A DNA stretch of 64,000 bases. Origin: Negativicutes bacterium. Lineage in GTDB: Bacteria; Bacillota; Negativicutes; UBA1444. Shown one piece after another: positions 29,688 through 49,359 of this stretch (its first letter is position 1; each line of letters starts with the position of its first letter). The stretch spans positions 32,001 through 96,000 of the forward strand of contig CAXXIN010000001.1 of the NCBI GenBank assembly GCA_963665275.2. Reading direction: 5' to 3'. The notes beneath the pieces are model-generated. The model had not been told where the DNA came from, made no database searches, and worked only from the letters and a program-made list of their open reading frames with translations. A program made the position numbers and the translations under genes.

Positions 29688-29727
29688 AGTCCCTCTGATT
29701 TGCTGCGGCATTTCGGAGGGATTTGTT
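29688..29727 (+). terminator. intrinsic terminator abutting attL
   Basis: AGTCCCTCTGA...TCGGAGGGATT stem followed by a T-rich tract. Confidence 0.55.
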
Positions 29728-29749
29728 ATGGAAATGTTAAGGTTGGGTT
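29723..29749 (+). repeat. attL core
   Basis: TTGTTATGGAAATGTTAAGGTTGGGTT, identical to 49333-49359. Confidence 0.93.
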
Positions 29750-29843
29750 GAGGGATGTCTGTGTTTTCAAGTATTTTCCTGTACCGTCGAAGCCTTTATT
29801 TTATTGGCTCGACGGTCTTTTTTTGTCTCTGCTGTATTCTTGC

Positions 29844-29885
29844 GTTTTGTCCTGTGTTTTGGCGGTTTTGGTATTTGTTTTGGTA
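29844..29885 (+). repeat. integrase arm-type sites, left
   Basis: GTTTTGGTA at 29865 and 29877 (12-bp period), degenerate copies at 29844 and 29856; same 9-mer pair at 49266/49278. Confidence 0.7.
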
Positions 29886-30252
29886 CTTGGAATTTTGATG
29901 AATCTGGTTTTGTCCAGATTCATCATGTTGCTGTTGTAAATTTTATAAAGGATCAGTGAGACCCCTGCATGCGTCCATTCAAATTGCGCTTGTCGGGCAT
30001 GATGGAGTAGGCTGTCATACGTTTACGGAAGCGGTCGATACGAGAACTCATAGGAAGAACTGTAGAATAATGAAATTCCGATTGAATAATCGGATAAGTG
30101 CTTTTGTTGAAAATAATTTTCTCTAAAAGCAGGATTTTATTTTTTTGCACAGAAGTGCGATAATATGATATAGAAAGATTTGCAGTTTAATGATTGTTGT
30201 GGTAATATAAACAATTCGTCAAGAGTTTAATTTTCCGAAGGGATGGATTAAA

Positions 30253-30909
30253 ATGAATAAAGCAATTGATTTTGCAAGATGGTTTATTAAAAACGGGTGT
30301 GATTGGCCCAGGAACAGTCGTGATGGGAATATGCGTTTGCAAAAAATACTGTATTTTTCACAACTAATTCATTTAGCAAGAACCGGAGAAGTGCTTTTTG
30401 AAGACCCGATATTTGCCTTTCAGAATGGATCAGTTATTGAAGACGTGCGATTAGCTTACAAAGAAAATTTTGTATTATTAATTGAGGAATCTCTTTCGTT
30501 TAATCCACAATTTACTTCAGAGCAAGAGAAAACGATACAAACTACTGAAACGCTTTTTTGTGATTTAAGAGCAAAAGAATTGTCTGACCTAAACCATTTG
30601 CATCATTCATGGAAAAATGCTTTCGAAAAATCATGTATGTATGGAAGCCCTCAAAAAAGCTTAAGTACGATATCAGTAGATGATATTAAACTTTACGATT
30701 TGGAAAAAATTAAAGAGATGCTGGTTGCTTATGACATGGCAAAAGGGCAAAGTGAAACTTTTGAGGTGATTAACGGAAGTAAGTTTTACTATAATCCTTC
30801 AGAGTTAACTTTGACGGAAGAAATTTTGGAAACTTTAGAATCATATAGCGGAAATGGAGAGTCCTATTCAATATATATAGACGAGACGCTCGGGATGGTA
30901 GTATCTTAA
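30253..30909 (+). CDS. Panacea (DUF4065/SocA-type) antitoxin
   Basis: MRLQKILYFSQ...GEVLFEDPIFAFQNGSV...LSDLNH...W motif series. Confidence 0.82.
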   Translation: MNKAIDFARWFIKNGCDWPRNSRDGNMRLQKILYFSQLIHLARTGEVLFEDPIFAFQNGSVIEDVRLAYKENFVLLIEESLSFNPQFTSEQEKTIQTTETLFCDLRAKELSDLNHLHHSWKNAFEKSCMYGSPQKSLSTISVDDIKLYDLEKIKEMLVAYDMAKGQSETFEVINGSKFYYNPSELTLTEEILETLESYSGNGESYSIYIDETLGMVVS

Positions 30910-30910
30910 A

Positions 30911-31330
30911 ATGATTATAATTCCTGGGAATGGAGTGGGAATTATTGTCCCCTCTTTTGCTACTGGAAAAGGGACGGCTTATCCAAGGACTCTTTTGGTA
31001 ATCGACACTAATCCTGGTTTAAGACAGTTCACTTTATTAAATGTGTCTTCAGTAAAAGGGAAAGAACATAAAATATTGTGGCCATCAAATGAACCTCTAA
31101 CTTGCTTTAATCCTCCATTTCGCGTTCCGTCTTTCGTTAAACTAGATGAAATGTATACTTTTGATTATTTTCCAAAGTTTGATAAGGCTGTTTTTTCATC
31201 CGGGGTCTTAATTGCGAGCGAGTTGGAAAGAATACAAAAAAAGTTTGCGGAATTTAGCTTAGCGAGCCGCGTCATGAGGGTCAATTTTTCGGAAACGGAT
31301 ATAAAAAATTCGAACCCGCAGCTCGTTTGA
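30911..31330 (+). CDS. PemK/MazF-like toxin (PanT)
   Basis: P..RTLLV, VSS, PSFVKLD pattern; starts 1 nt after the antitoxin stop. Confidence 0.6.
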   Translation: MIIIPGNGVGIIVPSFATGKGTAYPRTLLVIDTNPGLRQFTLLNVSSVKGKEHKILWPSNEPLTCFNPPFRVPSFVKLDEMYTFDYFPKFDKAVFSSGVLIASELERIQKKFAEFSLASRVMRVNFSETDIKNSNPQLV

Positions 31331-31347
31331 TGTTTCCTTTACCCATC

Positions 31348-31387
31348 AGCTCCCTTCTGCATATGATGTCGGAGGGGGCTTTTTTTC
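31348..31387 (+). terminator. intrinsic terminator of the TA operon
   Basis: AGCTCCCTTCTG...CGGAGGGGGCT-TTTTTTT. Confidence 0.8.
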
Positions 31388-31442
31388 TCCTAAAAAGTCT
31401 CCAAAGGGTGTATTAACCATATCTAACAACATAAATAGTTTC

Positions 31443-31470
31443 AAGCCCTCCGGCATCAGCCGGAGGGCTT
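31443..31470. repeat. inverted repeat sharing arms with 32580-32618
   Basis: AAGCCCTCCGG-catcag-CCGGAGGGCTT. Confidence 0.7.
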
Positions 31471-31641
31471 ATTGTGTTATGGCAGGAAACCGGCGGTGTT
31501 CCCCACTGGCCAATTGCGTTGATCCTGTTGCATGAGGCGGCAGCGTTGACATTTTTTTTGCGGCAGGAAAAGAATGGATGGTGAAGAATATGAAATTGAA
31601 ACAATGCTGTTATGCAGTCAAAAACAGATTTGGAGGTTTCG

Positions 31642-32421
31642 ATGTTTACAATCTATGCTCCAAGAAGTGGCGCGCCAAGCTTTGAGCTGCTTGGAATGGC
31701 TATGCCTAATGATGATTGGCAAAAAGCAAAATGTAATTTAATCGATCTTTTACGGGCAGAAAAGAAAGGGGATTCTGCTGATTTTCTGGAAAAATATCCA
31801 TTTGAAATTATGCAGGGAACAAATACTTTTATGGATGAGTTTTTTGTCTTGCATTTTTACGCACCAATACCGCAATACATTCAGCTTAAAAAGGAAGCAC
31901 ATGCCCCGTCAAGCTTGAAATACGAGAATATTGTCAAGGCATTTGAAGAATTAGAAGTTGGATATCTAAGATTTATTGCAGCAAGTTTAGAAACTAATGA
32001 AAAACCTGCTACTATTATTTCTCGCGAGTATACAGGATGGGAAAGACTTGATCGAACAATAACTGAAGCGGAACGACTGCTTGGCGTTGCAACAACGGAA
32101 GAACAGTTCCAATCTATTGGGTTTATGTGCAGGGAGGCCCTGATTTCATTGGCACAAGAAGTATTTGATAAAGATAAGTACCCATCGATAGATGGAACGG
32201 TCATTAGTGATTCTGATGCCAAACGAATGCTGGAAGCGTATTTTGCAGTTGAATTATCAGGGGATAGTAATGAGTTTGCACGAAAACTCTCCAGAGCAGC
32301 ACTAGATCAAGCTAATAAAGTGCAACATCGGCGAACAGCTGGTTTTAAAGATGCAGCCTTTTGTTTGAATGCGACAATATTTTTGACAAAGGCGATCTTG
32401 ATAGTCAATCAGGATGAGTAA
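31642..32421 (+). CDS. hypothetical protein, possible Abi/HEPN-like C-terminal helical domain
   Basis: GGAGG RBS; C-terminal CREALISLA...ANKVQH pattern reminiscent of abortive-infection C-terminal domains. Confidence 0.55.
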   Translation: MFTIYAPRSGAPSFELLGMAMPNDDWQKAKCNLIDLLRAEKKGDSADFLEKYPFEIMQGTNTFMDEFFVLHFYAPIPQYIQLKKEAHAPSSLKYENIVKAFEELEVGYLRFIAASLETNEKPATIISREYTGWERLDRTITEAERLLGVATTEEQFQSIGFMCREALISLAQEVFDKDKYPSIDGTVISDSDAKRMLEAYFAVELSGDSNEFARKLSRAALDQANKVQHRRTAGFKDAAFCLNATIFLTKAILIVNQDE

Positions 32422-32579
32422 GGGAATTTCGTTACCGATCTGCTCCGAATGCGTCCCAGGGGACTTTTATCTTTGCCTAATACCTGCCGAAGCATTTGCT
32501 CGTAATGTCTGAATTGCCAAATTGTTCTCGTCGTAGAGTTGAGTGGTTGTCTTATGCTTTGGGCCCATCAACCCAAAAT

Positions 32580-32618
32580 AACAACAAAGCCCTCCGACTG
32601 ACGGAGGGCTTTGTTGTT
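32580..32618. terminator. bidirectional terminator
   Basis: AACAACAAAGCCCTCCG-actga-CGGAGGGCTTTGTTGTT between convergent genes. Confidence 0.8.
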
Positions 32619-32661
32619 GTGCGAGACAGATATTGGTGAACATGCAGCAATTTTTTATAAA

Positions 32662-33636
32662 TCAAACGTTTTCTGCTTTTTTCCTCTTCCGACTTGCCGC
32701 GACATTGTCTCTGTTTTTACATCCCGTGCATTTTTTCCAACGAGTGCGTCCTTTATTATCAGTCAAGTCAAAGAACTTTCCGCAGGAAGGACACCATTTG
32801 TAAATTCTTTCTTTGGTTACCCCTTGGAAAATTTGTCCCCACATAAATCCTAACAAATTTGAAGGATAATAACACTGAACTAGTTGTTTTGTTTGAAGGT
32901 GGTACATCAATCTGGGGGTGGCAGGGAATTTGTCCACCATACTGTTTACTTTTTCCTGGATGGCTATTGTTATTCGGATTATTGGAGTATTGCCTTCGCG
33001 CATAATCCTGTGATAGGGCCTTTTGTCATACAAGGCGCTTCCTACGCGATAACGTACAGATTCAAAATCTATCCATATGCCGGGAATTCCTCTAACCATG
33101 CAAACAGTGGCGTCATTGATCGCTTTTTCCACGCTACGCAAGTCATTTTCCAATTTCGGTTCTAATTTTTGAAGGTCTTTTTCAGTTGCGAATTCTAGAC
33201 CTAATTCTTTAATAGTGCTTTTGGCATTATTGTACTGCTCCAGCCATGCCGTCAGTTGGCAAACATATCTCATGTCAGCAATGCTATTCCACCAAAACTC
33301 TTTGCTTTCGCCCATAAACTTAGGGTGAGTTGGGTCCTCGTCAGTGAAAAACGTATTTTTTGTCAATAGGCCCCATCTATTGGCAAAGGCAATAAGTTGA
33401 GACTCGCTTCTGATCTCTGTAAAATTTTCGAACAACATCGGATTTTTTTTATTCTCAGGATCAAAACAATCGTAATAAGAAAGTTCTTCTACGGGATCGA
33501 CTGGCACAATAAACGGGGGACGTATTGGCTCGACTGGCTTATCGGTTGGCTTAACAAGGGATACTTTATCTGTAATTTGGTAACCGGACGTTTTGCGTGC
33601 CCACATAAATACTGTTGTATCTTTTCCAACGAGCAT
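32662..33636 (-). CDS. CGNR-type zinc-finger protein
   Basis: C-terminal CPSCGKFF...CTGCKNRDNVAASRKRKK; GGAG RBS before ATG 33636. Confidence 0.65.
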   Translation of the reverse strand: MLVGKDTTVFMWARKTSGYQITDKVSLVKPTDKPVEPIRPPFIVPVDPVEELSYYDCFDPENKKNPMLFENFTEIRSESQLIAFANRWGLLTKNTFFTDEDPTHPKFMGESKEFWWNSIADMRYVCQLTAWLEQYNNAKSTIKELGLEFATEKDLQKLEPKLENDLRSVEKAINDATVCMVRGIPGIWIDFESVRYRVGSALYDKRPYHRIMREGNTPIIRITIAIQEKVNSMVDKFPATPRLMYHLQTKQLVQCYYPSNLLGFMWGQIFQGVTKERIYKWCPSCGKFFDLTDNKGRTRWKKCTGCKNRDNVAASRKRKKAENV

Positions 33637-33789
33637 GTCCTCATCTCCATTTGTAAGCAAAATGTAATCGGATAAAATATAGATTACTGTTACTATCTTG
33701 ATTATTATTATAGGCAGGGGTGGCCTGGTGTGCAAGAAAAATCTATAATGCGTGAGGCATCAGACAAATAAAAGAGAGGAGATGACAAG

Positions 33790-33981
33790 ATGAATAATGT
33801 AGAACTCAGGTCCATACTGGATCGTGCCCGGAAGGAGAATGGCATTTTTGCATACGAAGTGGCTTATTCTCTGGGCGTAAATGATGTGACTTTTTCCCGC
33901 TGGCTCCGCAAAGAACTTACGTCGGAACGGCGAACGCAAATTTTGGCCGCGATTGATAAATTGCAAAAAAAAGTGGGGTGA
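33790..33981 (+). CDS. Cro-like HTH protein
   Basis: YEVAYSLGVNDVTFSRWLR; GAGGA RBS. Confidence 0.75.
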   Translation: MNNVELRSILDRARKENGIFAYEVAYSLGVNDVTFSRWLRKELTSERRTQILAAIDKLQKKVG

Positions 33982-34169
33982 CGATGATGGATAAAAAAAC
34001 ATTTACCGTTAAAGAATTCATGGCAGCGGTCGGAATATCAAAGAGTTTCGCGTACAGGTTGATCAATATGAACCAATTCCCAGTAATAAGACTAGGACAT
34101 CGCAAAGTGCTGATCTCTGCCGCAGTCGTGGATAAAATCATCGCAGGCTATGATTTCACAAAGGATTAG
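33978..34169 (+). CDS. excisionase/AlpA-like winged HTH
   Basis: TVKEF...GISKS.AYRL...FPVIRLG.RKVLI. Confidence 0.75.
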   Translation: MTMMDKKTFTVKEFMAAVGISKSFAYRLINMNQFPVIRLGHRKVLISAAVVDKIIAGYDFTKD

Positions 34170-34625: not shown

Positions 34626-35393
34626 GTGAGCGCGGCGATTCCGGGCGGCTATATTTTGCTTGCAAGAAAAATCATCGACAGCGAGATATGGAAAAAACCA
34701 CCACTGTATATGAAGATATGGATATACCTTCTAACCCAAGCTCAACACGATCAATACAGAGGATTGCAAAAAGGTCAACTTTATACAAGCATCCCCAAAA
34801 TCCAAAAAGCCTGTGCATGGAAAATTGGCTTCAGCACCGTCACGCCAACCAAAGATCAGGTTTTTCAAGTTATCGATTGGATGCGAAAAACATCTACTAC
34901 ACTAGCAACGATGGAAGCACCAATGATAGCAACGATGAAGGCAACACATGGAATGCTTGTAACCATAGATAAATACTGTGTTTATCAGAACTCGAAACTG
35001 TATGAAAGCAACGATGAACCCGCGATGAAAGCAACGATGAACTACGACAATACAAACAAGAACCACAAAAATAACCAATACTCTCTTGTCGAAGCTAACC
35101 ACATTCGACTTGCCGAACTACTGCGGGATTCAATAACCGCTTGGAAACCAAATGCAAAGGTTGATAAAGATCTTGGCAAATGGGCCAACGTCATCAGGCT
35201 ATGCATGAAGGACGGCAGAACGGAAGCTGAGATTGAAGCCGTCATAATATGGGCAACCTGTGATTCGTTTTGGCAGGTTAATATTCTTTCTGCCGATGCT
35301 CTTCGTCGAAACTTCGATAAGCTTCAGGCTAAGATGATGCAATCAAAACCAACACAATCACCAAGTCGAGATTATTCAACTATACGGATGTGA
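34626..35393 (+). CDS. phage replication initiator (lambda-O-like layout)
   Basis: GYILLARKII.SEIW, KIWIYLL..A N-terminus; internal iterons; C-terminal W...DSFWQVNILS...LR..FDKL. Confidence 0.8.
   Translation: MSAAIPGGYILLARKIIDSEIWKKPPLYMKIWIYLLTQAQHDQYRGLQKGQLYTSIPKIQKACAWKIGFSTVTPTKDQVFQVIDWMRKTSTTLATMEAPMIATMKATHGMLVTIDKYCVYQNSKLYESNDEPAMKATMNYDNTNKNHKNNQYSLVEANHIRLAELLRDSITAWKPNAKVDKDLGKWANVIRLCMKDGRTEAEIEAVIIWATCDSFWQVNILSADALRRNFDKLQAKMMQSKPTQSPSRDYSTIRM
34904..35080 (+). repeat. putative replication origin: four iterons plus A-rich tract
   Basis: AGCAACGATG at 34904, 34928, 35007 and 35030, then A-rich 35041-35080. Confidence 0.7.
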
Positions 35394-35400: not shown

Positions 35401-37176
35401 ATGAACCCTTACGAATTCGCCAGAGCTCACCTTGGAGAATTCAAACAACACGGTAATGAGATTGTTCCAAAGTATTGCCCGTTTTGCCAAGGTGGACCCA
35501 ATAAAGATAAAAATTCCTTCGCTTTGAATGTTGCTAAAATGACGTACAACTGTAAGCGCGGATCATGCGCCGAACAAGGTCACTTCACACAACTTTGTAA
35601 GCGATTCGGAGTTGAAGCTGACAGAGAGCCTGGATATGAAAACTATCGGCCGGTACCAAAGGTTTATAAAAAGCCGGAAACCGTTATCGAAACGCCCCGA
35701 CAGAAAGTCGAATCCTATTTAAAGCTTCGAGGATTTAGCCCGTCGACATGGGAACGGCGCCGAGTTGGAGAAGCGGCCGGCAATATTTGTTTTCCATACT
35801 ATGAAGATTCCAAAGTCGTTTTGGTGAAGTTCCGGAAGCCTGAAAAATATACCGGCCATGGGCAAAAGGCTTGGCGTGAAACTGGTGGCAAAGACATTCT
35901 ATGGGGAATGGACTTGTGTGATCCTCAAAAACCGCTGGTGATAACTGAAGGAGAATTTGACACGCTGGCTTTAGACGAAGCCGGCATTTTTAATGCCGTA
36001 TCAGTTCCATCGGGCGCAGCAAGCATGGAATGGATTGAGAACTGTTGGGACTGGCTGGAACAGTTCAGCAAAATCATCATCTGGGGGGATGCCGACGACC
36101 CAGGGCGGGAGATGGTCCGGAAGGTTGTTTTAAAACTTGGAGAATGGCGCTGCTTCCTCGTTGATTCCGGGCGCCATAAAGATGCAAACGAAGCATTGGC
36201 AAGAGAAGGCAAGGAAAAGACGGCTGCCTATGTGGCACAGGCAAAGCCGATTCCGATTCAAGGGCTCATTGATCTTGCCGATGTGACGCCGGTCGATATC
36301 TCCAACATTGCACGAGTACGATCTGGTATTCCGGGTCTTGATCAAGAGATCGGCGGATTTCTTATGGGGGAACTTTCTGTATGGACTGGCAAGAGTGGAC
36401 AGGGAAAATCAACGCTATTGGGGCAATTGCTTTTGGAGTCCATTCACCAGGATTATGGCGTTTGTGCATATAGTGGAGAACTCCGGGCGGATCGGTTTCA
36501 ATATTGGACAAACCTTCAGGCTGCCGGCCCAAATTACATCGAGCAGTATTTCGATACGGTAAAAAAACGGCCGGTTGGCTATGTTCCCAAGCCAATCAGC
36601 AGCCAGATTCGCGAATGGTATCGGGGAAAGTTCTGGCTCTACGATAACAATATCTTGTCATCAAGCCCTGAAGAAAGCGGGATCATCAAACTATTTACCT
36701 ATGCAGCGCGGCGTTATGATTGCAAGGTTTTCCTTGTGGACAATCTGATGACTTCCCGTTTTGAAGGTGGAAAATCAGACAGCGATTATTACCGGGCGCA
36801 GTCAACTTTCGTGGGGGACCTGGTTCATTTCGCAAAAGCCTACAATGCGCATGTTCATTTGGTGGCTCATCCCCGAAAGACTCAGGGAAAAGTCGATAAG
36901 GAAAGCGTTTCGGGGAGCGGCGATATTTCAAACAGAGCAGACAATGTCTTTTCCGTCGAGAGGGCAGAAATAGGTGCCCCGATCAATACGACGGTTTCAA
37001 TTCTCAAGAACCGATCTGAGGGGATTCAAAATGTCGAAATCGGATTACTGTTTGACGTCGATTGCAAGAGACTCTGGCAGCCTTCAGATGCAGCTGGAAT
37101 GACAAAACTGTATGGATGGGAGACGCAACGAAAAATAACGTGCGCAGATGATTTCGGGCAGGAAGTTAAGTTTTAA
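35401..37176 (+). CDS. T7 gp4/Twinkle-type primase-helicase
   Basis: CPFC...C...C zinc finger, TEGEFD, VSVPSGA, DAD, KDANE (TOPRIM); GKSGQGKS, VDNL, LVAHPRK, GSGDI...AD, KNR (SF4 helicase). Confidence 0.92.
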   Translation: MNPYEFARAHLGEFKQHGNEIVPKYCPFCQGGPNKDKNSFALNVAKMTYNCKRGSCAEQGHFTQLCKRFGVEADREPGYENYRPVPKVYKKPETVIETPRQKVESYLKLRGFSPSTWERRRVGEAAGNICFPYYEDSKVVLVKFRKPEKYTGHGQKAWRETGGKDILWGMDLCDPQKPLVITEGEFDTLALDEAGIFNAVSVPSGAASMEWIENCWDWLEQFSKIIIWGDADDPGREMVRKVVLKLGEWRCFLVDSGRHKDANEALAREGKEKTAAYVAQAKPIPIQGLIDLADVTPVDISNIARVRSGIPGLDQEIGGFLMGELSVWTGKSGQGKSTLLGQLLLESIHQDYGVCAYSGELRADRFQYWTNLQAAGPNYIEQYFDTVKKRPVGYVPKPISSQIREWYRGKFWLYDNNILSSSPEESGIIKLFTYAARRYDCKVFLVDNLMTSRFEGGKSDSDYYRAQSTFVGDLVHFAKAYNAHVHLVAHPRKTQGKVDKESVSGSGDISNRADNVFSVERAEIGAPINTTVSILKNRSEGIQNVEIGLLFDVDCKRLWQPSDAAGMTKLYGWETQRKITCADDFGQEVKF

Positions 37177-37209: not shown

Positions 37210-37680
37210 ATGGCTAATGCAGATCAAATTATTTTGCGACTTGCTAACGGAACATTAGTGCTCTATCCCCAAGAGGTCTTTGAACTGGTAAGAGAATCAC
37301 CGTCGCTTTTGGCTGCCGCACTGCGGCGAGGAATACGGGAGAGGGATGAAATACTGAAGAAAATCCGAAGCTCGAATGGTGGGGCAATGGAGGCCACGGT
37401 CATAAATGATTGGGGCACATTGATTTGGGTTGATTTTATCGACGGTAAATGGTTGGTTAGCCGGCGAAATGACGATGGAACGCACGCAATATTGAAACGC
37501 TTTGATAAACCCCTTCTTGCGTTCCAGAGCGCCTGTAACATGCGAGATGGTGTCCAGATCGTTTGCCCCAATGGCGACTTTAAGCCGTCGGCGGTGAATG
37601 ATATTTGCCGGACAAAGAGCGCTGCAGATGAAATTGATCGAATGATGGGTGGCCCTGGCTGGTGGCCCTGGCTGGATTGA
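37210..37680 (+). CDS. hypothetical protein
   Basis: AAGGAGG RBS; shares a motif with 38261-38590. Confidence 0.7.
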   Translation: MANADQIILRLANGTLVLYPQEVFELVRESPSLLAAALRRGIRERDEILKKIRSSNGGAMEATVINDWGTLIWVDFIDGKWLVSRRNDDGTHAILKRFDKPLLAFQSACNMRDGVQIVCPNGDFKPSAVNDICRTKSAADEIDRMMGGPGWWPWLD

Positions 37681-37736
37681 AAATGCCAACGAGTTTTCAC
37701 GAAGTGAAGATACGAAAATTAATGGAGGTTGTAGTT

Positions 37737-38264
37737 ATGAGTGAGCAAATGACAGAAGAACAATCTGTAGCATATCTAAAAAAGAGTTTTCGCATTAGGA
37801 CAGACAACAAGGGGTTGGTGCTACTGCGTTCAATCAAGGAAATGCTTCCGAAGGCAGATGAACAGACCCAAAAGAAAATAGGCGGGATTATTATTGGGTT
37901 TGCATCGTTTCATAATCTATCGGATTCGCAGCTGTTAAAGTTCTTTGGGGTAACGCTGGAGGCAGCTAAAGGAGCAGTTGGGGAAGAGTTCTTGCGGGAA
38001 CATGGATTTTATAGGGCATTGGTAGCAAGCCCGTATTTGTCACCGACGTGTAAACTGTTCTTTAATGCGTGGTTTGCCGAGGCAAATGATAAATACCCTA
38101 TGGGGTGTTGCCTACGTCGTGTTGGGATGGATACGTTCCGTCTTGTATCGATATTGCCAAGCGGTGCGGAGATTGAATATCCGGAGGATATGACGACTGC
38201 CCAAGTACTCGAGGCGACGAACTGCCCACGAGATGAACTGCAGGCCATGCCGGTGCTGCAATGA
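37737..38264 (+). CDS. hypothetical protein
   Basis: GGAGG RBS before ATG 37737. Confidence 0.7.
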   Translation: MSEQMTEEQSVAYLKKSFRIRTDNKGLVLLRSIKEMLPKADEQTQKKIGGIIIGFASFHNLSDSQLLKFFGVTLEAAKGAVGEEFLREHGFYRALVASPYLSPTCKLFFNAWFAEANDKYPMGCCLRRVGMDTFRLVSILPSGAEIEYPEDMTTAQVLEATNCPRDELQAMPVLQ

Positions 38265-41500: not shown

Positions 41501-41663
41501 AGTATCAAATAGCCTTAAATTTGATATCCAGGTCAATGCCAATGGCATGGATCAGGAGTCTGCAAGGCAACTAGGCAACGAAGCGGCAAAGCAAATGCTT
41601 CCTCGCATCGAACAGGCAATTAATCAGTCGCGGACTAGCTTTGCAGGACCAGGACTGAAATGA
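38577..41663 (+). CDS. phage tail tape-measure protein
   Basis: 1028 aa, Ala/Gly-rich and helical; typical N-terminus (DVQIQIIGKDLAS), tape-measure-like core (QELRDLVAG...LATALG), hydrophobic segment, C-terminal DIQVN...IEQAI; AGGAGG RBS. Confidence 0.82.
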   Translation: MSASDVQIQIIGKDLASAAFKSVDASAKRTEAQMASLGSSAGRMGGMFRSAASVTAGIAGYEGISSIMQKSVGAAFEFATGLEASANGMAGILMSMGQVDGRTLEWGESLSVAQGIITRMNDEALRTAATSQELVRGVQALLAPGLASGMNITQIETLTVTGVNAVKLLQLQSYQVVQELRDLVAGGIQPASSTLATALGLKDSDIQAAKASSQGLFNFLMERLKGFEVASGEYAKTFKGLNEQIKEGLTRGAATGMGAGLEFAKEQMKGLAEKIVTIDETTKTVQINPVLVSTIGAMTQNTIAFVGEMKKIGEIVSPVVVPAVEMLGSAIGYAARNASDLTFAVGGWMIAKQAQVIYMDVAAATAGAATAQTLLGRAVIETNAQQTRQRAMALEAAAVQKAAVTEQVIAIKSLLAAEAQRTSGLMKMTAGYVDQASVVDKARLALIGATQAAKNGEYSLAQSIISTNEVLAAQGAIATAVAEKQVAGAVAAAGAQKSLAATTATASAFNAGASVGMTAASFVGKAAWKAVNGWFGAAVLVSYYAYDEIWKNREEIKRIMAENYNNNLNTPQSPGEDYLFGPKDKTPVANYGENRKPDKKVSPGSGDPLRDQQGPLQKNDKQLSEITGKYNKQKEEIMKIEADLQTSILQLQGFTLQATLNGIEKEKKAWIEKGVNKVAAEQWAAAAITKANKDAADKIKTAYEQVKSSRESVASTFQGSFGSAIDEVMQNIKNNRSENAYEAVEKMRKEFEIRQQASRAVASAAGFSDAEKFDPVSPWQSVNKSIEAAAKAQIEYLKIIAQNTARPPQSPAGSIQNPKDPGKANSFPPIQGGGSNPNYDGAFGGGQQRNGEAITPGTLTFEQYNKATGMDKLMNITWPAGWTDERKEKWGRNLEGFPIPGPYNDSSKKPFWKADTQGGMLQSNSDQVERARIIMGNMSGDKESTNRVRALMQGMKESSGDKFAPQTSAIAPVQQVSNSLKFDIQVNANGMDQESARQLGNEAAKQMLPRIEQAINQSRTSFAGPGLK

Positions 41664-41675: not shown

Positions 41676-41936
41676 ATGCAGGAACATGACAAAATAATTC
41701 AGTTGACTCACATGGAATCAACCTTGCGTGAAGTTGCAAAACGCGTAATATTGACGGCTGATGTGCTAGAACGGTGCAGGACCATAAGCGATCCTGCACC
41801 GGTACTTCTGGCCTGGACTGTTGTGATTGAACGTCAGTCCAAGGAGCTGGAATGCATTGCAAGGGTAATTCGCCAAGAAGCCGACGCGGTGGAGGTGGCG
41901 CATGGACGAAAAGACGGCAGCAGTTCTGTTGCTTGA
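41676..41936 (+). CDS. hypothetical protein
   Basis: Helical 86-aa ORF in the operon. Confidence 0.55.
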   Translation: MQEHDKIIQLTHMESTLREVAKRVILTADVLERCRTISDPAPVLLAWTVVIERQSKELECIARVIRQEADAVEVAHGRKDGSSSVA

Positions 41937-42438
41937 CTATCCTAAGCGATGGGATGCCCTGCAGGAGCGCCGAGCTCAGATTATTGACGCCTATGGTAAC
42001 GGTAACGCCTATCATGGTGGCGGAGGAGACAGTGGCGGTCATAGTGATAATACTTTCAAAAAAGCCTCGCTGCTGGTTAATATGGGCACAGAAGAAGCCA
42101 ACCTTAAGGTGGTGCGCGAATGGCTTTCTATCGGATTGAACCCTCGGGATTCGAGTGGTATTGATAAATTTATGGAGAGGTTATCCATCAGTTCAGCTCG
42201 ATCGGCACAATATCGATCAGAGCGAGAGCGTAAGCCAGAGAGTGAAAGGCATGGTGAATGGGTTGACTCGCTTTGCTGGACGTGCCTGAGACGAACGTGG
42301 TCGTGCCTATGTCAGTATCCGGAAGAAACGCCGCCAGGACTTGAGACAACTGAACCCAATCCGCAATGTGCTGACCGGATTGTGGTTCGGTGTGGTTGGT
42401 ATTGGCACGATAAGGAAGCGGCACAGGTGCGGAAGTAG
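41902..42438 (+). CDS. RinA/ArpU-like N-terminus fused to a Cys-rich tail
   Basis: GGAGG RBS; LLDY...II...GG.SDNT..KA..L pattern; C-terminal CWTC...CLC. Confidence 0.5.
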   Translation: MDEKTAAVLLLDYPKRWDALQERRAQIIDAYGNGNAYHGGGGDSGGHSDNTFKKASLLVNMGTEEANLKVVREWLSIGLNPRDSSGIDKFMERLSISSARSAQYRSERERKPESERHGEWVDSLCWTCLRRTWSCLCQYPEETPPGLETTEPNPQCADRIVVRCGWYWHDKEAAQVRK

Positions 42439-42623
42439 GAAGAATAATAAGAGTGTAAGGAGGAATGACATATGAGAACAATTGATGAAATCCAAAAGGA
42501 GATTGATTCCTTAGTTTTTGAACCTGGGGACCCAAAACGAATTCTACCCGCGCAAGATCAGCCTGCAACTCGAACTACTCATAGCACTGCTGCGAAGTAA
42601 ATAAGAAGATCGTGAAAAATTCC

Positions 42624-42733: not shown

Positions 42734-42803
42734 AGTTTCGTGCCGGTAATTCTCGGCATCCATACCCAATCGATCTTCAAATCCGCAAACGCTTGCGTTT
42801 TTG

Positions 42804-42827: not shown

Positions 42828-42949
42828 GGCATACATAAGGCATGGTGACCAACGTTTCTGCCGAGACCGACAATCCTTCATAACACAGTAGCGGGTTGAT
42901 ATGGTAGGCAATGCTTCAAACAGTCATGAGAAAGAACGGGAGGAAGCAA

Positions 42950-43369
42950 ATGGATCCTGGCGATGTTGCCACGGAATTGAAAGAGGACTATCTACTCATT
43001 TCAAGTTGGCTGATTTACTACAGTGAACGGAAGCGCAACATAGACATAATGCGGATTTCAACGCAAGACAAGAGGTGGATGGAGGTGTTCGAGCTATTGC
43101 ACCATATGCTTGGACCGAAGAAACGTCTATTACTCGAACTCAGGAGACTAGAGGCAGAGCAACCAGCCGCTCGCAGAACACGAGGAAGGCCCGGCTGGAT
43201 GGTATGGGTGCAACGCCATTGGGTCGAAGCCTACGCGAAGCGATACGGTGATTCTGATGGTGAATGCTGGATATCGGACGGGATGGTCAAGAACATGTGG
43301 AGCGAGATTGTGGCTCGATGCGCAATATTGGCAGGAAAGAGAGGGCTGCTGGCGGGGAGAGCCTCCTAG
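42950..43369 (+). CDS. RinA/ArpU-like late transcriptional regulator
   Basis: GGGAGG RBS; WLIYY, RW.EV, KKRLLLELR, W.S...K..W..IV pattern; directly precedes the cos-like site. Confidence 0.55.
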   Translation: MDPGDVATELKEDYLLISSWLIYYSERKRNIDIMRISTQDKRWMEVFELLHHMLGPKKRLLLELRRLEAEQPAARRTRGRPGWMVWVQRHWVEAYAKRYGDSDGECWISDGMVKNMWSEIVARCAILAGKRGLLAGRAS

Positions 43370-43376: not shown

Positions 43377-43430
43377 GGGTCCTGTGACGCCCTAAAATGC
43401 GGCAAGGGTCGCGAAGCCCCCGACAATTCG
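43377..43430 (+). other. lambda-type cos-like packaging site (cosQ plus cosN)
   Basis: GGGTCCT (identical to lambda cosQ), 22 nt, GGGTCGCGAAGC (7/12 identical to the lambda cohesive end GGGCGGCGACCT; spacing in lambda is 23 nt). Confidence 0.6.
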
Positions 43431-43763
43431 CTAGTGATAGAAAATTTTTGTGCGCTTCGGATTTCGCTTTTTTGGTGTGCGCTTCTGGTGGGCAAAGCCG
43501 CCGAAAATTCAGTATTTAAAGCACTTGAAGGGGGGTAGCGAAAAACAAAACCAACGGCAAAAGTCGGAAGTAAAGCGAAACTGCGAAAAAAGGGGGGGGG
43601 ATGTGTTTGGGGGTATCTTTTGCGAACTCGATAAAATACGGCGCGGTATCGGGGAAAAAAGCAATGTCAAAAATTAATCAGAAAGGGGCTAAAGATAATG
43701 AACATGCAAAGCGGCGAGGCAATGACAAAAAAAGAAAACGCTAATAATACGGAGGGTAAACCA

Positions 43764-44498
43764 ATGACCGAAAACAGTATGGAAAAGGCCCGGAAAAAGC
43801 TAAATAATGCCTATGCGATGGAATTAGAACAGGCGGCAATCGTCGCAAGTCTAAAGGGTAAAATTAAGGCCGCAGAGGGCGCGACCGTCGAAATCGGCGA
43901 TGACATTGATCTTGTGGCCATTCGGCAGAGAATATCGGAAACGCAGAAAAAACACCAAAACTTGACCGGCGAATTGGCAGCGGCTGAAATGGTGCTGGTG
44001 TCGATTCAAAAACAACGAATCAATGCTTTGATGGCGGTTTATGCGGCGGAACACGAAATCAGACAGGAAGAACGGTCACTATTGATAAAAGAGCGAGCGG
44101 GATTGCAGTCTGAGATAACCAGCCTTCGCGCAAAACTAGAAGTCATTGAAGGAAAGGGTAGACTTCTTGACCGTACATTAGACAGCATGAACCGAGCCGA
44201 GGAAACAGTTGCCGGGAAATGCGCAGCGGCAAGGCTGGCGGGGTATGAAGAATCATTACTGAGGTGTCGTGATCGACAAAAATTTCACGACATAATGGAA
44301 AGCGGCCAGGGCGGCACATACGTAACGATTGACGAGCGCGGCGAATTTATCGAACCGCAACAAACAAGCCGCGACGTTGACCAATGGGGCTATCAAAAGC
44401 CGGTGGCTACGGTTCAGTATAGCGAGCCTAGGCCTATAGAAAATAGGGTTGAAACCCCAAAACGAGAAGTATTTACGGTCGTCCCCATGCAGGCATAA
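43764..44498 (+). CDS. coiled-coil hypothetical protein
   Basis: GGAGG RBS before ATG 43764; long heptad-rich helices. Confidence 0.7.
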   Translation: MTENSMEKARKKLNNAYAMELEQAAIVASLKGKIKAAEGATVEIGDDIDLVAIRQRISETQKKHQNLTGELAAAEMVLVSIQKQRINALMAVYAAEHEIRQEERSLLIKERAGLQSEITSLRAKLEVIEGKGRLLDRTLDSMNRAEETVAGKCAAARLAGYEESLLRCRDRQKFHDIMESGQGGTYVTIDERGEFIEPQQTSRDVDQWGYQKPVATVQYSEPRPIENRVETPKREVFTVVPMQA

Positions 44499-44644: not shown

Positions 44645-45043
44645 TTATACTCTCAGTCGTTTTTTCAAGGCGGTTTGCAATATGTTGGAAAAGTTGACCC
44701 CCTCACGTTCGGCCATGGTGTTCAACCATTGAGGGATCGTCAGAGTTTTCTTCACAGCCCGGTTATCGTGCTTCTGTTTATAGGCCAGCATATCCATATC
44801 GACCAGGGCGATGAAGCTGCTGCCCTCCGAGCGTAGTCCGGAAGGATCAGAGGCAGCAGGAAATTCCTTCCCGTCTGCTTCCAGTTCGGTCAAATAAATA
44901 CCTATGGCGTCCCGTGTCATTTCAAAAGCCTCTTCCAGGGTATCACCTTCCGTAATGCAGCCGGGAAGATCAGGAACGGTTACAGAGTAGCCACCGACTG
45001 CTTCCGCTTCGAATATGGCCGGATATACAAACTTTGTTTTCAT
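44645..45043 (-). CDS. hicB: HicB antitoxin
   Basis: YPAIF...VPDLPGCITEGDT.EEA; VKKTLTIP.WL...NFS RHH. Confidence 0.93.
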   Translation of the reverse strand: MKTKFVYPAIFEAEAVGGYSVTVPDLPGCITEGDTLEEAFEMTRDAIGIYLTELEADGKEFPAASDPSGLRSEGSSFIALVDMDMLAYKQKHDNRAVKKTLTIPQWLNTMAEREGVNFSNILQTALKKRLRV

Positions 45044-45045: not shown

Positions 45046-45252
45046 CTATTCCTCCTTCGGCAGCTGGACCGGCTTCAATCCGGCTTGCTTCATAATCTGG
45101 TTAAAGGTTCCCGGCTTCAGGTCTTTGTTATGGAGAGGAACAACCAGCATACCTGGCTTATCCGTGTGCTTCATGATATGGTGCGATCCATCGATTCGCG
45201 CCACCCGCCATCCATCTTTTTCAAGGATCCTGATCAGGTCTTTGGGCTTCAC
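45046..45252 (-). CDS. hicA: HicA mRNA interferase toxin
   Basis: DGW...GSHH..KH...VVP.H.KDL..GT...I.KQAGL. Confidence 0.93.
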   Translation of the reverse strand: MKPKDLIRILEKDGWRVARIDGSHHIMKHTDKPGMLVVPLHNKDLKPGTFNQIMKQAGLKPVQLPKEE

Positions 45253-45388: not shown

Positions 45389-45607
45389 CTATCGCCTATT
45401 AAACAGGGAGAGCAATATATCCAAGATGGCTTGAGCGCCGAACCAAACAATGATAGCGGAAAAGACATAGCTGGCTGTTACAGAATACTTGGCAAGGCTT
45501 GCGGGAACAATCACAGGCGCGAGATAGCCCCAAATGACGATAGAGGCCAAATATAATCCGTAACCAATGACGGCAAGGAGTATCCACCTAAATAATGTGC
45601 CGAACAT
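45389..45607 (-). CDS. small two-TM membrane protein
   Basis: AGGAGG RBS, 72 aa, two hydrophobic helices, basic C-terminus. Confidence 0.7.
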   Translation of the reverse strand: MFGTLFRWILLAVIGYGLYLASIVIWGYLAPVIVPASLAKYSVTASYVFSAIIVWFGAQAILDILLSLFNRR

Positions 45608-45662
45608 CTTATTCCCTCCTGTGTTTTCTGGGTTGAAATAATAAATACGATCGAGAAGCCTG

Positions 45663-45884
45663 TTAAACTTTCTCTTCTGGAATATACTCCATGAGGTCAC
45701 TGGGTTGACAGTTAAAATACTGGCACAAACGATGAACAACTTCCAGGGAAACATATTCACCTTTACCCATTTTAGCTATCGTTGATGGCGACAGGCTGAG
45801 CTCGATTCTTAATTTCTCTTTCGTTATCCCTTTATCAATGAGCATTTTCCATAAAGGATTGAATGAAAACGGCATAGGATACAC
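45663..45884 (-). CDS. Cro/C1-type HTH regulator
   Basis: LWKMLIDK...SPSTIAKMGKGEYVSL...LC....CQP.D. Confidence 0.85.
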   Translation of the reverse strand: MYPMPFSFNPLWKMLIDKGITKEKLRIELSLSPSTIAKMGKGEYVSLEVVHRLCQYFNCQPSDLMEYIPEEKV

Positions 45885-46300: not shown

Positions 46301-46495
46301 ATGAAAAAACCAATCGTCATACCCCATTACGAAGACCAGGACATTCTCTCAGCCGTTGAGGCGGCGCAGTACATGAAGGTTTCAAAAGACACCGTTTACA
46401 CCCTCGTTGCCGAAAATAAAATTCCGCACCGCTATGTTGGTCGGCAGGTCAGGTTCCCGTTCTGGTTGCTCAAGGCCTGGATGGAAGGGGATTAG
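46301..46495 (+). CDS. excisionase-like HTH protein
   Basis: LSAVEAAQYMKVSKDTVY.L....IP...VGRQVRF. Confidence 0.85.
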   Translation: MKKPIVIPHYEDQDILSAVEAAQYMKVSKDTVYTLVAENKIPHRYVGRQVRFPFWLLKAWMEGD

Positions 46496-46637
46496 GTGTT
46501 CACCGATGGCGTACAAAGAAACTGTTGAATCTTCAGTGGCGCAGAGACAATAGGCCTCATTGTGAAAATCGGCGCCACCACTTTCGGTCAGAGATCCGAG
46601 CGATCAACGAGATTTGACTTGGGAAGGAGCAATAACC

Positions 46638-46808: not shown

Positions 46809-46937
46809 AACTAGAAAAGCCCGGCCCCTGTTTTAACAGGGGCCGGGTCAATCGATCAAAGCAGAATTGAATGAAACTGATATGTATATTTTGATTGTAA
46901 TAGAGATATCGGGTGAAAAGAAAGGGGATATATTTTT

Positions 46938-47198
46938 ATGATCGACTGGCAGGAAATTGAAGCACTGGGCACGGAAGCGGAGCAGCTCGCCACGATGGCG
47001 CAAACGGTAGAGGATGCCATAGCGTATGGGCCTTTTACCGAAAAGACTTATCACGGGGCATTGTCCCTGCTCACAGCGCTTATACACCAACATGCGCAAA
47101 AAATTAATGTGGTATTGCATGCAGAATTGAATGAACTGAAATCGAAAAAGAAAGAAAGGCCGTCAATGGTACGGGATACCGCGGCAGCCTCGCAATAA
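46938..47198 (+). CDS. hypothetical protein
   Basis: AAGGGG RBS, helical. Confidence 0.6.
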   Translation: MIDWQEIEALGTEAEQLATMAQTVEDAIAYGPFTEKTYHGALSLLTALIHQHAQKINVVLHAELNELKSKKKERPSMVRDTAAASQ

Positions 47199-47257
47199 TA
47201 AATATAGTATGGGCGGCTGCTGTCATGCGCCCCCACCATTTTGAAAGGGAGATTATT

Positions 47258-47890
47258 GTGAAACTGATTTGTACGACGGTAGAACCTATCCAATTCAAGG
47301 TTGAGTTTGACTTTGCTACGCATTACCTTCAGGGATTTATTAGGAATCTGCAGCAATTCATTGGTTCCGGCAATATAGACCGCGACGCATTGAAGCGATC
47401 GGTGTTCTATGGCGTGAAGTATGTCGCAGGCAATATAAAAGCCAACAACTCGCAACGAATGCTGGGCCTTGTCACTGGCGTGAAAGTGGCAATTGCGGAG
47501 CTTACACCTGCCGAATTGATTACCATATTCCCCATAACAAAGACATACGATGGGGATCGGACGAAAAGCAAGGATTACTTCTATTCGATAGACCGGCTGA
47601 AGAAACACGGCCTGCAGACCATCATCGGCGATGCGGTGGATGATTTGCTATGGGATATTAGGAATTTGGATCTTGAGCTTTTCACGGTTCGTTGCATGAC
47701 ATTGGTCGACGAGTTGCGCCGGATGGAAGGGAAGCCGGGAATAATTGAGGAATTCTACGGCATTCAACCAAAGTATCTGTGCAAGGATGAGCGCGGCAAA
47801 GAGTTTATGTTTGATCCTGCGACGGGCAAAACCGCAAAGGTGAAAGCGAAGATACGTTTGCACATTGTTGCAAAAAAAGGAAATCATTAA
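47258..47890 (+). CDS. hypothetical phage-associated protein
   Basis: AAGGGAG RBS; TP.EL...FPI.K.YDG....KDYF pattern that I recall from Firmicute phage proteins. Confidence 0.65.
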   Translation: MKLICTTVEPIQFKVEFDFATHYLQGFIRNLQQFIGSGNIDRDALKRSVFYGVKYVAGNIKANNSQRMLGLVTGVKVAIAELTPAELITIFPITKTYDGDRTKSKDYFYSIDRLKKHGLQTIIGDAVDDLLWDIRNLDLELFTVRCMTLVDELRRMEGKPGIIEEFYGIQPKYLCKDERGKEFMFDPATGKTAKVKAKIRLHIVAKKGNH

Positions 47891-48055
47891 ACGAATACTC
47901 TCCATCAGTGGTGAGTATTCGTACTACACGCCGAGTAATCGCTTTGCAACTTCCTGCAAAATGCTTCGCAGGATGAATTCCAAGTTGAGAAAAACACAGT
48001 GCTGGGGGAAACGAAGAGGAGAAATGGCATAGGATCAAAACAGGAGGTGAATTTG

Positions 48056-49261
48056 ATGGCAAAGCAAAAACCGAAACCCGAAGGACCAGAAACACGAAGA
48101 GGGCATGGTGAAGGAAGTTGGTTGTATCTTGATGATCTGGACAAATGGCAGTTCAGGGTATCAGCCAAAACACCGGATGGTATCACAAAACGGTTTGCAG
48201 TGACAGCATCTACTAAAGGCGAATGCAGGGAGCTTGCTAAGACCCGGACGGAGCAGATCGAAAAAGGGATCGGGTTGAACATTGATACGAAGAATATCAC
48301 AGTTACAGAGTACTTGGAACGTTGGATTGTCGACTACTCAGACCCAGATACTTCTGCATCAACCAAGAGAATATACCGGTCGGTGATTAAGAATCAACTA
48401 GCAGGGGCGATTGGCGCAATTCCCTTGAAAAAGCTGCAGCGAGCTGCATGCCAAAGACACTTCAACAATTTGGCCAAGAGTGGATTGGCTTCAGCGACAG
48501 TTTCATTGGCGCATACGGTACTGCGTGCAGCGTTGAAGCAGGCTGTAAGGGACAGGATCATTGCGGAAAACCCAGCAAGTGAACTGAAGCTGGCACAGAT
48601 TAAAAACGCGCCCAGGATGGCCTACGCATCGGAAGAGGTTTCCAAGATTCTGAAGCTGGCAGAGAATCATGAATTGCGTATCGGCTTTCATCTTCTCTTT
48701 GGGCTTGCTCTACGCGAAGGCGAGATGTTAGGCCTGAAATGGAAAAGGGTTGAACTTCCGGAAGCACAGCGCGATCAGAATGGCCAGATGGAAGGAAAAG
48801 TTCATATCGTAGAGCAGTTGAACAGAAATAAGGGCGAAACCTACGCTTCCCTAAAAACGGAGGAATCTGAACGGACCTTGCCAATATCGCCAGCGCTGGT
48901 CATTGAGCTACGAGCACAGATGCTTCGTCAAAAAGCAACGCTGTTAAAAGCCGGCATAGCCTGGAACGAAGATTTCCCTGTATTATCTGATGCGATTGGC
49001 GGACCGGTCAGGCATACGATTTTTTTGGCAGCATACAAGGAAGTTATGCAAGCTGCTGGTCTGAAAACTACCGGGACGCATGACGCCAGACACACACGAT
49101 TAACTATGTTGGCCAATAGCGGGATGGACCCCAAAACCCTGTCGAGATTCGCAGGGCATGCCGATGTCGCTTTCACACTGAATGTATATGTAACACCATC
49201 GGACGAGAAGGCTGCTGCGGCGGTCAATCAATTGGATCAAGTCATTTATAAGGCAAAATAA
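48056..49261 (+). CDS. int: tyrosine integrase
   Basis: N-terminal arm-binding RRGHGEGS; catalytic R (LREGE), K (LKT), HDAR, GH and Y (NVY) all present; GGAGG RBS. Confidence 0.95.
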   Translation: MAKQKPKPEGPETRRGHGEGSWLYLDDLDKWQFRVSAKTPDGITKRFAVTASTKGECRELAKTRTEQIEKGIGLNIDTKNITVTEYLERWIVDYSDPDTSASTKRIYRSVIKNQLAGAIGAIPLKKLQRAACQRHFNNLAKSGLASATVSLAHTVLRAALKQAVRDRIIAENPASELKLAQIKNAPRMAYASEEVSKILKLAENHELRIGFHLLFGLALREGEMLGLKWKRVELPEAQRDQNGQMEGKVHIVEQLNRNKGETYASLKTEESERTLPISPALVIELRAQMLRQKATLLKAGIAWNEDFPVLSDAIGGPVRHTIFLAAYKEVMQAAGLKTTGTHDARHTRLTMLANSGMDPKTLSRFAGHADVAFTLNVYVTPSDEKAAAAVNQLDQVIYKAK

Positions 49262-49286
49262 AATCGTTTTGGTAATCGTTTTGGTA
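49262..49286 (+). repeat. integrase arm-type sites, right
   Basis: Tandem AATCGTTTTGGT x2, containing GTTTTGGTA at 49266 and 49278. Confidence 0.72.
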
Positions 49287-49332
49287 GTTTGAAAACACAG
49301 GCACGCGCAAAGCCTATAATATAAAGCCTCAA

Positions 49333-49359
49333 TTGTTATGGAAATGTTAAGGTTGGGTT
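49333..49359 (+). repeat. attR core
   Basis: Identical to 29723-29749; about 70 bp after the int stop. Confidence 0.93.

Follow-up and report, generated by a model that had tools for sequence, protein, structure and literature searches.

A putative phage satellite of Sporomusaceae with a tape-measure gene as its only recognised virion gene

Why should an integrated mobile element carry the gene for a phage tape-measure protein (TMP) when no other virion gene can be recognised in it? The question is raised by an element of ~19.6 kb, flanked by perfect 27-nt direct repeats, in the genome of a member of the Sporomusaceae (G000; 3.97 Mb in 20 contigs, estimated to be 92.6% complete). The element lies in a stretch of 64 kb, the whole of which we analysed and refer to as the window (G000:C1:32001-96000). 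An earlier note, made from the letters of this DNA, had described the element as satellite-like and had proposed that a helper terminase packages it through cos and that it remodels or poisons the tails of the helper. Judging from its gene content and from comparison with related genomes and phages, we consider it to be an integrative, self-replicating phage satellite of Sporomusaceae that brings its own TMP for the tail of a helper, and we give this reading a probability of about 0.5.

Results

A tape-measure homologue stands without other recognised virion genes

The limits of the element and the gene in question are as follows.

29723-29749: attL core (27 nt), a perfect repeat of attR, in the pstS upstream region
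49333-49359: attR core (27 nt), a perfect repeat of attL
38577-41663, plus strand: TMP homologue of 1028 aa, by homology to TMPs in tail operons

The 1028-aa protein matched no Pfam or NCBIfam family, even at E ≤ 5, and no curated TMP model such as PF10145; its sole PHROG match was phrog_30973, which is labelled “unknown function”. It has 567 homologues at E ≤ 0.001, and the sources name some of these tail tape measure protein. The closest relative among the genomes is the TMP of a Negativicutes siphophage in a sister species (G007:C9, L031/L038), with 57% identity over 404 aa. The operon of this phage contains PHROG families for adaptor, portal, protease, decoration, major head, minor tail, TMP and tail proteins. 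With the G007 protein the window TMP shows no relation in its C-terminal half, which matches, at 29–45% identity, genes for proteins of 670–706 aa in two prophages of congeners (L236 in G010:C39, 11566-13686, minus strand; L237 in G005:C23, 9893-11911, minus strand). Both genes occupy the TMP position of full-looking tail operons, and they align only with residues ~630–845 and 972–1022 of the window TMP. Because its N- and C-terminal parts match different prophages, the window TMP appears to be a mosaic of two phage types.

Searching for loci with the single TMP sequence returned nothing in genome or viral contigs, whereas searching with an alignment of TMPs succeeded. By TMP homology, 191 loci were fetched, of which genomes supplied 31 and metagenomes and viral contigs 80 each, and 103 of the 191 could be judged, having at least 4 kb upstream and at least 5 kb downstream of the gene. 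All but one of these 103 loci showed large same-strand neighbours in tail-operon order under a crude rule based on ORF (open reading frame) sizes; the single flagged locus (L216) has ORFs of 824 and 786 aa upstream. This census reads ORF sizes, with annotation by hidden Markov models (HMMs) for just G007:C9 and G010:C53. In the phages searched, TMP genes lie between chaperone and distal-tail genes, whereas the window TMP has a replication module on one side and small ORFs of regulatory appearance on the other. The 1028-aa ORF, which the earlier note had called a tape-measure gene, is thus truly homologous to TMPs within complete head-tail operons.

The note had also seen no head, terminase or tail tube genes, and our searches agree with it. 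No match to a head, portal, terminase, tube or baseplate family was found when 26 ORFs of the element were compared with Pfam, PHROGs and NCBIfam, and relaxing the Pfam threshold to E ≤ 5 for 15 of them added no virion family. When the ORFs of at least 100 aa of 12 related TMP loci, which for the most part encode head and tail proteins, were used in tblastn searches, no structural-gene fragment was identified in the element. Apart from the annotated genes, its largest ORFs measure 357, 269, 266, 221 and 200 aa, and these sizes leave no room for hidden head genes.

Lone tape-measure genes recur with a rare small-protein family

Directly upstream of the TMP gene we identified three small ORFs.

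37210-37680, plus strand: ORF a, 156 aa, no family match; paralogous to ORF c in its C-terminal half
37662-38264, plus strand: ORF b, 200 aa, no family or ESM Atlas match
38261-38590, plus strand: ORF c, 109 aa, a rare TMP-linked family, overlapping the start of the TMP gene by 14 nt

The earlier note had suggested looking for the lone-TMP architecture in other genomes, and it recurs in two. The first case is a 15.7-kb contig from the same genus (G010:C53; L032 = L039) that carries a DnaC-like gene, ORFs of 143, 221 and 95 aa, a TMP of 1093 aa, a toxin-like gene and Xis, and in which no head or tail PHROG was found. Its Xis is 65% identical to that of the window, and its TMP and that of the G007 phage share 63% identity over 941 aa. 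The 95-aa ORF, which precedes the TMP gene, is 49% identical to ORF c. An IS21-type transposase with a DnaC/IstB-like gene is also present on this contig (L039 198-2527).

The second case, an element of ~17 kb bounded by 37-bp direct repeats, lies beside tRNA-Lys in G164:C1. It encodes an integrase, a primase-DUF3987 protein, ORFs of 150, 104, 94 (c-like), 236 and 81 aa, a 955-aa protein and a transposase; the last belongs to DDE_Tnp_1 (L234 17962-19110). The 955-aa protein has no family match of its own, and it gave just a 32-column C-terminal match to the window-TMP alignment, with a probability of 38%. PF10145 is found in its relatives, one of which has 36% identity over 98% of the length, and the name phage tail tape measure protein is attached to one of them. 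Its kinship with TMPs is therefore drawn from these PF10145-bearing relatives, and not from the match to the TMP alignment. In all three diverged elements, a TMP homologue (from two TMP families) is thus coupled with the ORF-c family and with genes for integration and replication, and no other virion gene accompanies it.

The ORF-c family is narrowly distributed. Its profile matched 3 of the 401 genomes of the class (G000, G010 and G164), which are exactly those with lone-TMP elements, and in the window it also matched positions 37420-37647, the C-terminal half of ORF a (E 2.8e-8). Among 1.84 billion proteins it retrieved seven representatives. One of these, P0125 (1466 aa), has seven matching stretches (E 1.9e-10) in membrane-type repeat sequence, and we regard it as spurious. 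When the 26 window proteins were compared by tblastn with 192 TMP-homology loci (L038-L229), ORF c was found in L039 only. A word-indexed protein search with ORF c returned the query itself only, and ORF c alignments scanned against viral and metagenome contigs gave no loci.

In an AlphaFold2 (AF2) model with a pLDDT of 63.6, ORF c folds into three strands, a helix and a C-terminal helix. Foldseek gave nothing against the PDB at E ≤ 1e-3; a VIA-align wide search reached at best Z 5.7, for generic three-strand-plus-helix matches, and the best match in BFVD (E 6e-3) was to uncharacterised small phage proteins. The single-sequence AF2 model of ORF b, of low confidence (pLDDT 56.5), is helical in its N-terminal part, after which come three strands and one helix. 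Based on its position, with the 14-nt overlap, and on its co-occurrence with the TMP, we infer that ORF c may act as a chaperone.

Substitutions in the TMP genes were counted on codon alignments by the Nei-Gojobori method. For the G010 element against the G007 phage, the N-terminal 400 codons gave pN 0.155 and pS 0.673, whereas omega, taken over the full length, was ~0.12; between the window and the G010 element it was ~0.25, all with synonymous divergence (dS) saturated. Synonymous change dominates, a pattern that excludes long neutral decay but gives no measure of constraint specific to the element lineage.

A candidate helper type and a cos-like motif

The nearest full phage, on G007:C9, encodes a GpA-type large terminase (PF05876, 2e-63). 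The G010 element contains a piece (L039:7901-8015) with 89.6% DNA identity to the G007 prophage (L238:772-886), where it forms the 3' end of a 173-aa gene overlapping the start of the large-terminase gene. By this position the 173-aa gene, which has no Pfam match, is a candidate small terminase. In the G010 element the shared piece is a 42-aa ORF, 83% identical to residues 128–169 of the 173-aa protein, and it is preceded by a 115-aa ORF that looks winged-helix-like by eye and has no HMM match. Two features of the window element also link it to the G007 prophage.

43406-43422, plus strand: 17-nt motif GGGTCGCGAAGCCCCCG, candidate cos element, in a 330-nt non-coding G-rich stretch
46938-47198, plus strand: 86-aa ORF in common with the G007 prophage (tblastn 50% over 74 aa, E 8.5e-21, L238:8851-9072)

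GGGTCGCGAAGCCCCCG is present in a single copy in the window, in the longest non-coding stretch of the element, and has an exact match on the minus strand of the G007 prophage (L238:1372-1388), ~110 nt upstream of the putative small-terminase start (E 0.003). We take it as a hint of cos mimicry. The cosQ/cosN-like site of the earlier note comes down to this one match near the putative small-terminase gene of a related prophage. As a conserved cos in viral contigs the motif was rejected: it gave 12 matches, nine of them in one unrelated coding sequence. The TMP and terminase piece of the G010 element, and the 86-aa ORF and 17-nt motif of the window element, suggest that these elements exchange sequence with phages of the helper type.

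The GpA-type helper terminase that the earlier note had anticipated fits the G007:C9 phage. No GpA match or helper prophage was found in the G000 assembly. When the 12 related phage loci were compared with G000 by tblastn, the TMP and four isolated weak matches (on C4, C7 and C9) were obtained. One GpA terminase each was found in G164 and G007, and none in the G010 genome. The complete genome of G164 also carries its GpA-type terminase gene and, at another place, a window-type TMP homologue (G164:C1:4919792-4920538 and G164:C1:392923-393981, respectively). These two genes may mark one or two resident prophages and hence potential helpers; G164 has no second copy of the TMP of its element.

Mobility, replication and toxin-antitoxin genes

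The element has its own genes and sites for integration and excision (int, xis, att and arm sites) and for replication (a DnaD-like protein and a primase-helicase).

29865..29885 (starts 29865, 29877), plus strand: two arm-type repeats GTTTTGGTA, just inside attL
49266..49286 (starts 49266, 49278), plus strand: two arm-type repeats GTTTTGGTA, just inside attR
47999-49261, plus strand: tyrosine integrase (PF00589 1e-14, PF14659, phrog_1 7e-59)
46301-46495, plus strand: excisionase, HTH_17 (TIGR01764 1e-14; PF12728 8e-13)
34626-35393, plus strand: DnaD-like replication initiator/loader (phrog_2514 9e-40)
35401-37176, plus strand: primase-helicase, Toprim + DnaB/AAA_25-like (phrog_239 6e-89; Toprim_2, AAA_25 and DnaB_C in Pfam)
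33978-34169, plus strand: AlpA-like helix-turn-helix (HTH) regulator, 63 aa (PF05930 Phage_AlpA 24.7 bits, cut-off 21; HTH_17 2e-5)
33790-33981, plus strand: HTH-like small ORF, 63 aa, Cro-like by position (weak HTH_Tnp_1, E 0.018)
32662-33735, minus strand: candidate regulator, a divergent 357-aa gene with CxxC...CxxC at its C-terminal end, no significant family match

Much of what the earlier note had read from the letters was borne out here. The 27-nt att core occurs in two copies only, with no third in the 3.97-Mb genome, and all four matches to GTTTTGGTA in the 64-kb window are at the element ends, a count that 0 of 100 shuffles reached. The integrase is assigned by PF00589 and phrog_1, its R, HxxR, H and Y catalytic residues being recognised by eye only. 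The replication module described as bearing iterons indeed has an 18-nt repeat in three copies inside the DnaD-like gene (34923, 35002 and 35025). The 357-aa gene is a candidate regulator by its position, and its C-terminus is weakly similar (E 0.003–0.005) to a 408-aa minus-strand gene of the G010 element.

The two toxin-antitoxin (TA) systems of the note correspond, by HMM, to a TA-like SocA/Panacea pair and to HicAB. The remaining ORFs of these regions are listed with them.

30253-30909, plus strand: SocA/Panacea-domain protein, antitoxin-like (PF13274 3.2e-11; phrog_1281 1e-33)
30911-31330, plus strand: Panacea partner, candidate toxin (phrog_13386 7e-23), adjoining the Panacea gene, no Pfam match
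31612-32421, plus strand: 269-aa ORF of the low-GC cargo region, no family match (Pfam, PHROGs, NCBIfam, PADLOC)
44645-45043, minus strand: HicB antitoxin (PF15919 9e-17; phrog_497 7e-42)
45046-45252, minus strand: HicA toxin (PF07927 7e-24)
45389-45760, minus strand: 123-aa hydrophobic ORF, no family match
47225-47890, plus strand: 221-aa phage-family protein, function not assigned (phrog_6329 6e-39)

GC content is 0.37–0.42 in the left 4 kb (window 30001-34000), compared with 0.44–0.51 in the rest of the element. This left arm, with the Panacea pair and the 269- and 357-aa ORFs, looks like a cargo or defence hotspot. PADLOC gave no match for 14 ORFs of the element, the TMP included.

Small ORFs downstream of the tape-measure gene

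41676-41936, plus strand: ORF d, 86 aa, no family match
41902-42438, plus strand: ORF e, frame probably disturbed at 42150; no HMM match, whole or in pieces
42472-42600, plus strand: small ORF conserved with the G010 element, 43 aa with the contig-supported base count at 42515
42911-43369, plus strand: ORF f, 152 aa, no family match
43698-44498, plus strand: ORF g, 266 aa, coiled-coil-rich; weak coiled-coil-type Pfam matches only, E ≥ 0.058

Contigs of three public runs from two studies (X1, X2 and X3) each lack one base, relative to the window, at 42150 and at 42515, the latter in a run of five T. Two single-base errors or variants, which shift reading frames, are thus probably present in the window. 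With the contig-supported frame ORF e is 128 aa long, and this version has a C-terminal stretch resembling sigma region 4/ArpU, by eye only. The RinA/ArpU-like genes of the earlier note found no HMM match even at E ≤ 5. The corrected ORF at 42472 is collinear, by eye, with L039:7194-7364 along its whole length. A match of 27 nt between window 42777-42803 and G104 falls within a coding sequence of the latter, and we attribute it to chance.

The integration site

The element is inserted between a gene of the PAS/SpoIIE type on one side and pstS on the other, and the contigs of runs from two studies show it integrated there as well. Directly upstream of pstS the att core includes TGTTA-N6-TGTTA, which we take to resemble a Pho-box-type repeat. 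An empty attB was not found in relatives, where the left flank had no matches beyond G012 (72%, fragmented) and a stretch of 32 nt in the congener G001. This stretch is 91% identical to the att core and ends a contig (L009 = G001:C285, 1501-1532). The pstS-upstream site may be a recurrent integration point or an assembly-break point. In run X2, a lower-depth contig of 4219 nt has an att-core-like sequence of 32 nt (two differences; window 49330-49361) and a short piece of the pstS upstream region (window 49455-49473) with different flanks. It may represent the site of a related organism rather than an empty attB.

Discussion

Proposed course of the satellite

In the course that we propose, a helper siphophage of the type found on G007:C9, one whose large terminase is of the GpA type and whose TMP is homologous, would infect the host or be induced. 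The element would excise, replicate and express the operon of ORF a, ORF b, ORF c and TMP. Its TMP would replace or compete with that of the helper during tail assembly, the ORF-c-domain proteins acting as TMP-linked accessory factors. The resulting chimeric tails would serve the satellite and possibly spoil the tails of the helper, as in the PLEs (elements resembling phage-inducible chromosomal islands) of Vibrio, and the helper terminase would package satellite DNA at a helper-like cos site. All steps past excision we infer from gene content and from sequence in common with helper-type phage. A fuller version, which we hold tentatively and at slightly less than even odds, is that the elements form an unrecognised Sporomusaceae satellite lineage in which the TMP is the sole contribution to the virion. 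It would be accompanied by a small beta-beta-beta-alpha family, the ORF-c domain (ORFs a and c, possibly b by eye), would swap TMP and terminase segments with GpA/Nu1-type helpers, and would be packaged by the helper through cos while re-measuring or re-arming its tail.

Alternative explanations

Several observations weigh against a satellite. In the window we recognised neither a small terminase nor any gene for capsid size or packaging, and G000, at 92.6% completeness, gave no matches to TerL_ATPase, Terminase_6N, GpA_ATPase, Phage_portal or Phage_capsid. Contigs of four public runs, an assembly product that drops rare forms, show the integrated form only and no joints. The hint of a cos site is one 17-mer at E 0.003 that recurs by chance in unrelated viral contigs. 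ORF c is without a recognisable fold in the PDB, VIA-align wide and BFVD, and ORFs a, b and c scored a probability below 1% against a profile of the tail-assembly chaperones of 11 related phages. The three elements have just ORF c, the TMP class, Xis and Int in common, and omega, with dS saturated, is not assignable to the element branches alone. The G010 terminase piece, a 42-aa fragment in its own frame, fits decay as well as exchange. Part of this would suit a prophage remnant, that is, a siphophage that lost its head, terminase, tube and baseplate genes while the TMP and the mobility genes survived by chance or for another use, with no transfer in virions. The nearest relatives of the TMP all lie within complete operons, the G010 element carries the terminase fragment, and an IS21-type insertion and a DDE transposase have entered the G010 and G164 elements. 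The two single-base, frame-changing differences between the window and public contigs point the same way, as does the fact that neither a helper in the G000 assembly nor excision in the contigs was seen. However, structural-gene fragments, which a remnant might be expected to retain beside the TMP, were not found in the window element, and its att repeats are perfect and its int, xis and replication genes intact. Long open TMP genes (1028, 1093 and 955 aa) and the ORF-c family have been kept in three diverged elements, and this family was not found in the full phages searched. Because the lone-TMP layout recurs, the TMP changes are mostly synonymous and tblastn found no structural fragments in the window element, a freshly decayed prophage is argued against, as it was in the earlier note; we consider a remnant unlikely, though still to be reckoned with.

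The TMP might, in another reading, be a decoy within a defence island, where with ORFs a–c it would block the tail assembly of invaders, like Rta of PLE11 or the Tai systems; the element, whether packaged or not, would then mainly shield the host population and would not build particles of its own. Interference with tail assembly by satellites and prophages is documented in the relevant passages of two papers (PMC11364771, PMC12987554), the element has TA modules and a low-GC cargo region, and a mosaic TMP with N- and C-terminal parts from different phage types might suit a poison subunit. The lack of PADLOC matches for the 14 ORFs speaks against it, and the G010 TMP, collinear with a phage TMP over 941 aa, looks functional. 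We consider this explanation improbable; it is compatible with the satellite reading and does not exclude it. An autonomous virus or other mobile element, in which unassigned ORFs encode an unrecognised capsid or transfer apparatus, would accommodate the at least 13 ORFs without a family, with ORFs b and g as orphans. Yet no ORF of terminase or portal size is present besides the annotated genes, the low-confidence model of ORF b is helical with a small beta-alpha unit, and a TMP belongs to tailed-phage biology, and we regard such an element as very improbable.

Comparison with known satellites

A PICI (phage-inducible chromosomal island) combines an integrase, an AlpA/Stl-type regulator and a primase-replicase. 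All three were found in the window element, as matches to PF00589, to PF05930 (24.7 bits against a cut-off of 21) and to phrog_239. Like PICIs, both SaPI (Staphylococcus aureus pathogenicity island) and Gram-negative AlpA-type ones, it has a similar size class, a terminal integrase, an AlpA-like regulator, primase-type replication, a divergent regulatory region, TA and cargo genes, and no lysis or capsid genes. Whereas PICIs are defined as having no virion structural genes, this element has a 3-kb TMP gene; no match to a small terminase, Ppi or Cpm/Ccm family was found in it, and its cos-like match is a single one of 17 nt. Its primase-helicase, being of the Toprim-DnaB type, is a further difference from PICIs, although the G164 element has the DUF3987 type.

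A close parallel in layout is with the Vibrio PLEs. These encode a TMP, TAC (tail assembly chaperone) and BhuB, build chimeric tails and exclude the helper TMP, as the passages on tails in PMC12987554 (Nature 2026) describe; the same passages mention putative tmp genes in PLE-like elements and in some capsid-forming PICIs (cf-PICIs). Like a PLE, the element is integrated, is without capsid, terminase and tube genes, and has its own TMP with a small gene directly before it; the outcome proposed for it, a chimeric tail of helper parts around the satellite TMP, is also that of the PLEs. The likeness is one of gene content and layout. The differences lie in the host (Negativicutes as opposed to Vibrio), in the helper (a proposed temperate siphophage type as opposed to the lytic myophage ICP1), in the replication module, and in the absence from the element of any TAC or BhuB homologue recognised by profile and family searches.

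Like some cf-PICIs, the element is a putative satellite with a predicted TMP, but unlike them it has no capsid, portal or terminase genes that could be detected in the element or in G000. Mycobacterial (Mycolicibacterium) EPIPs are described, in the parts of PMC12822802 (bioRxiv Dec 2025) on their gene content, as carrying a TMP alongside several head and packaging genes, with a serine integrase, small terminase, adaptor, stopper, scaffold and major capsid protein. The window element resembles EPIPs in having a small satellite-type genome with a TMP, and EPIPs too are proposed to alter tails. It differs in its tyrosine integrase and in the lack of any small terminase, adaptor, stopper, scaffold or capsid match. 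The inhibition of tail assembly by satellite- and prophage-borne genes is treated in relevant sections of PMC11364771.

The earlier note had spoken of an undescribed satellite type. The concept of a satellite with its own TMP is already published for PLEs and, as putative, for PLE-like elements, some cf-PICIs and mycobacterial EPIPs; the lineage in Negativicutes would be new. A full-text literature search found no paper joining phage satellites and Negativicutes, and a full-text search combining satellite, chimeric tails and tape measure had the PLE paper (PMC12987554) among the matches listed.

Significance

What is best supported as new here is a TMP-bearing, satellite-like lineage in Negativicutes together with a new TMP-linked small-protein family, that of ORF c. 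To our knowledge, satellites were long believed to alter only capsids and packaging. The element also marks a candidate type of helper, a siphophage with a GpA terminase, and the promoter region of pstS as a site of integration. If the satellite reading is true, tail reprogramming would be a general and convergent strategy of satellites, found in Vibrio PLEs, mycobacterial EPIPs and Negativicutes, and the TMP would be the sole structural gene kept by three diverged elements in an unrelated lineage of anaerobic diderm Firmicutes. Such elements would then offer a compact system for learning what the TMP alone changes, be it tail length, the route of DNA ejection or escape from TMP-targeting defences, and for studying the function of the ORF-c domain.

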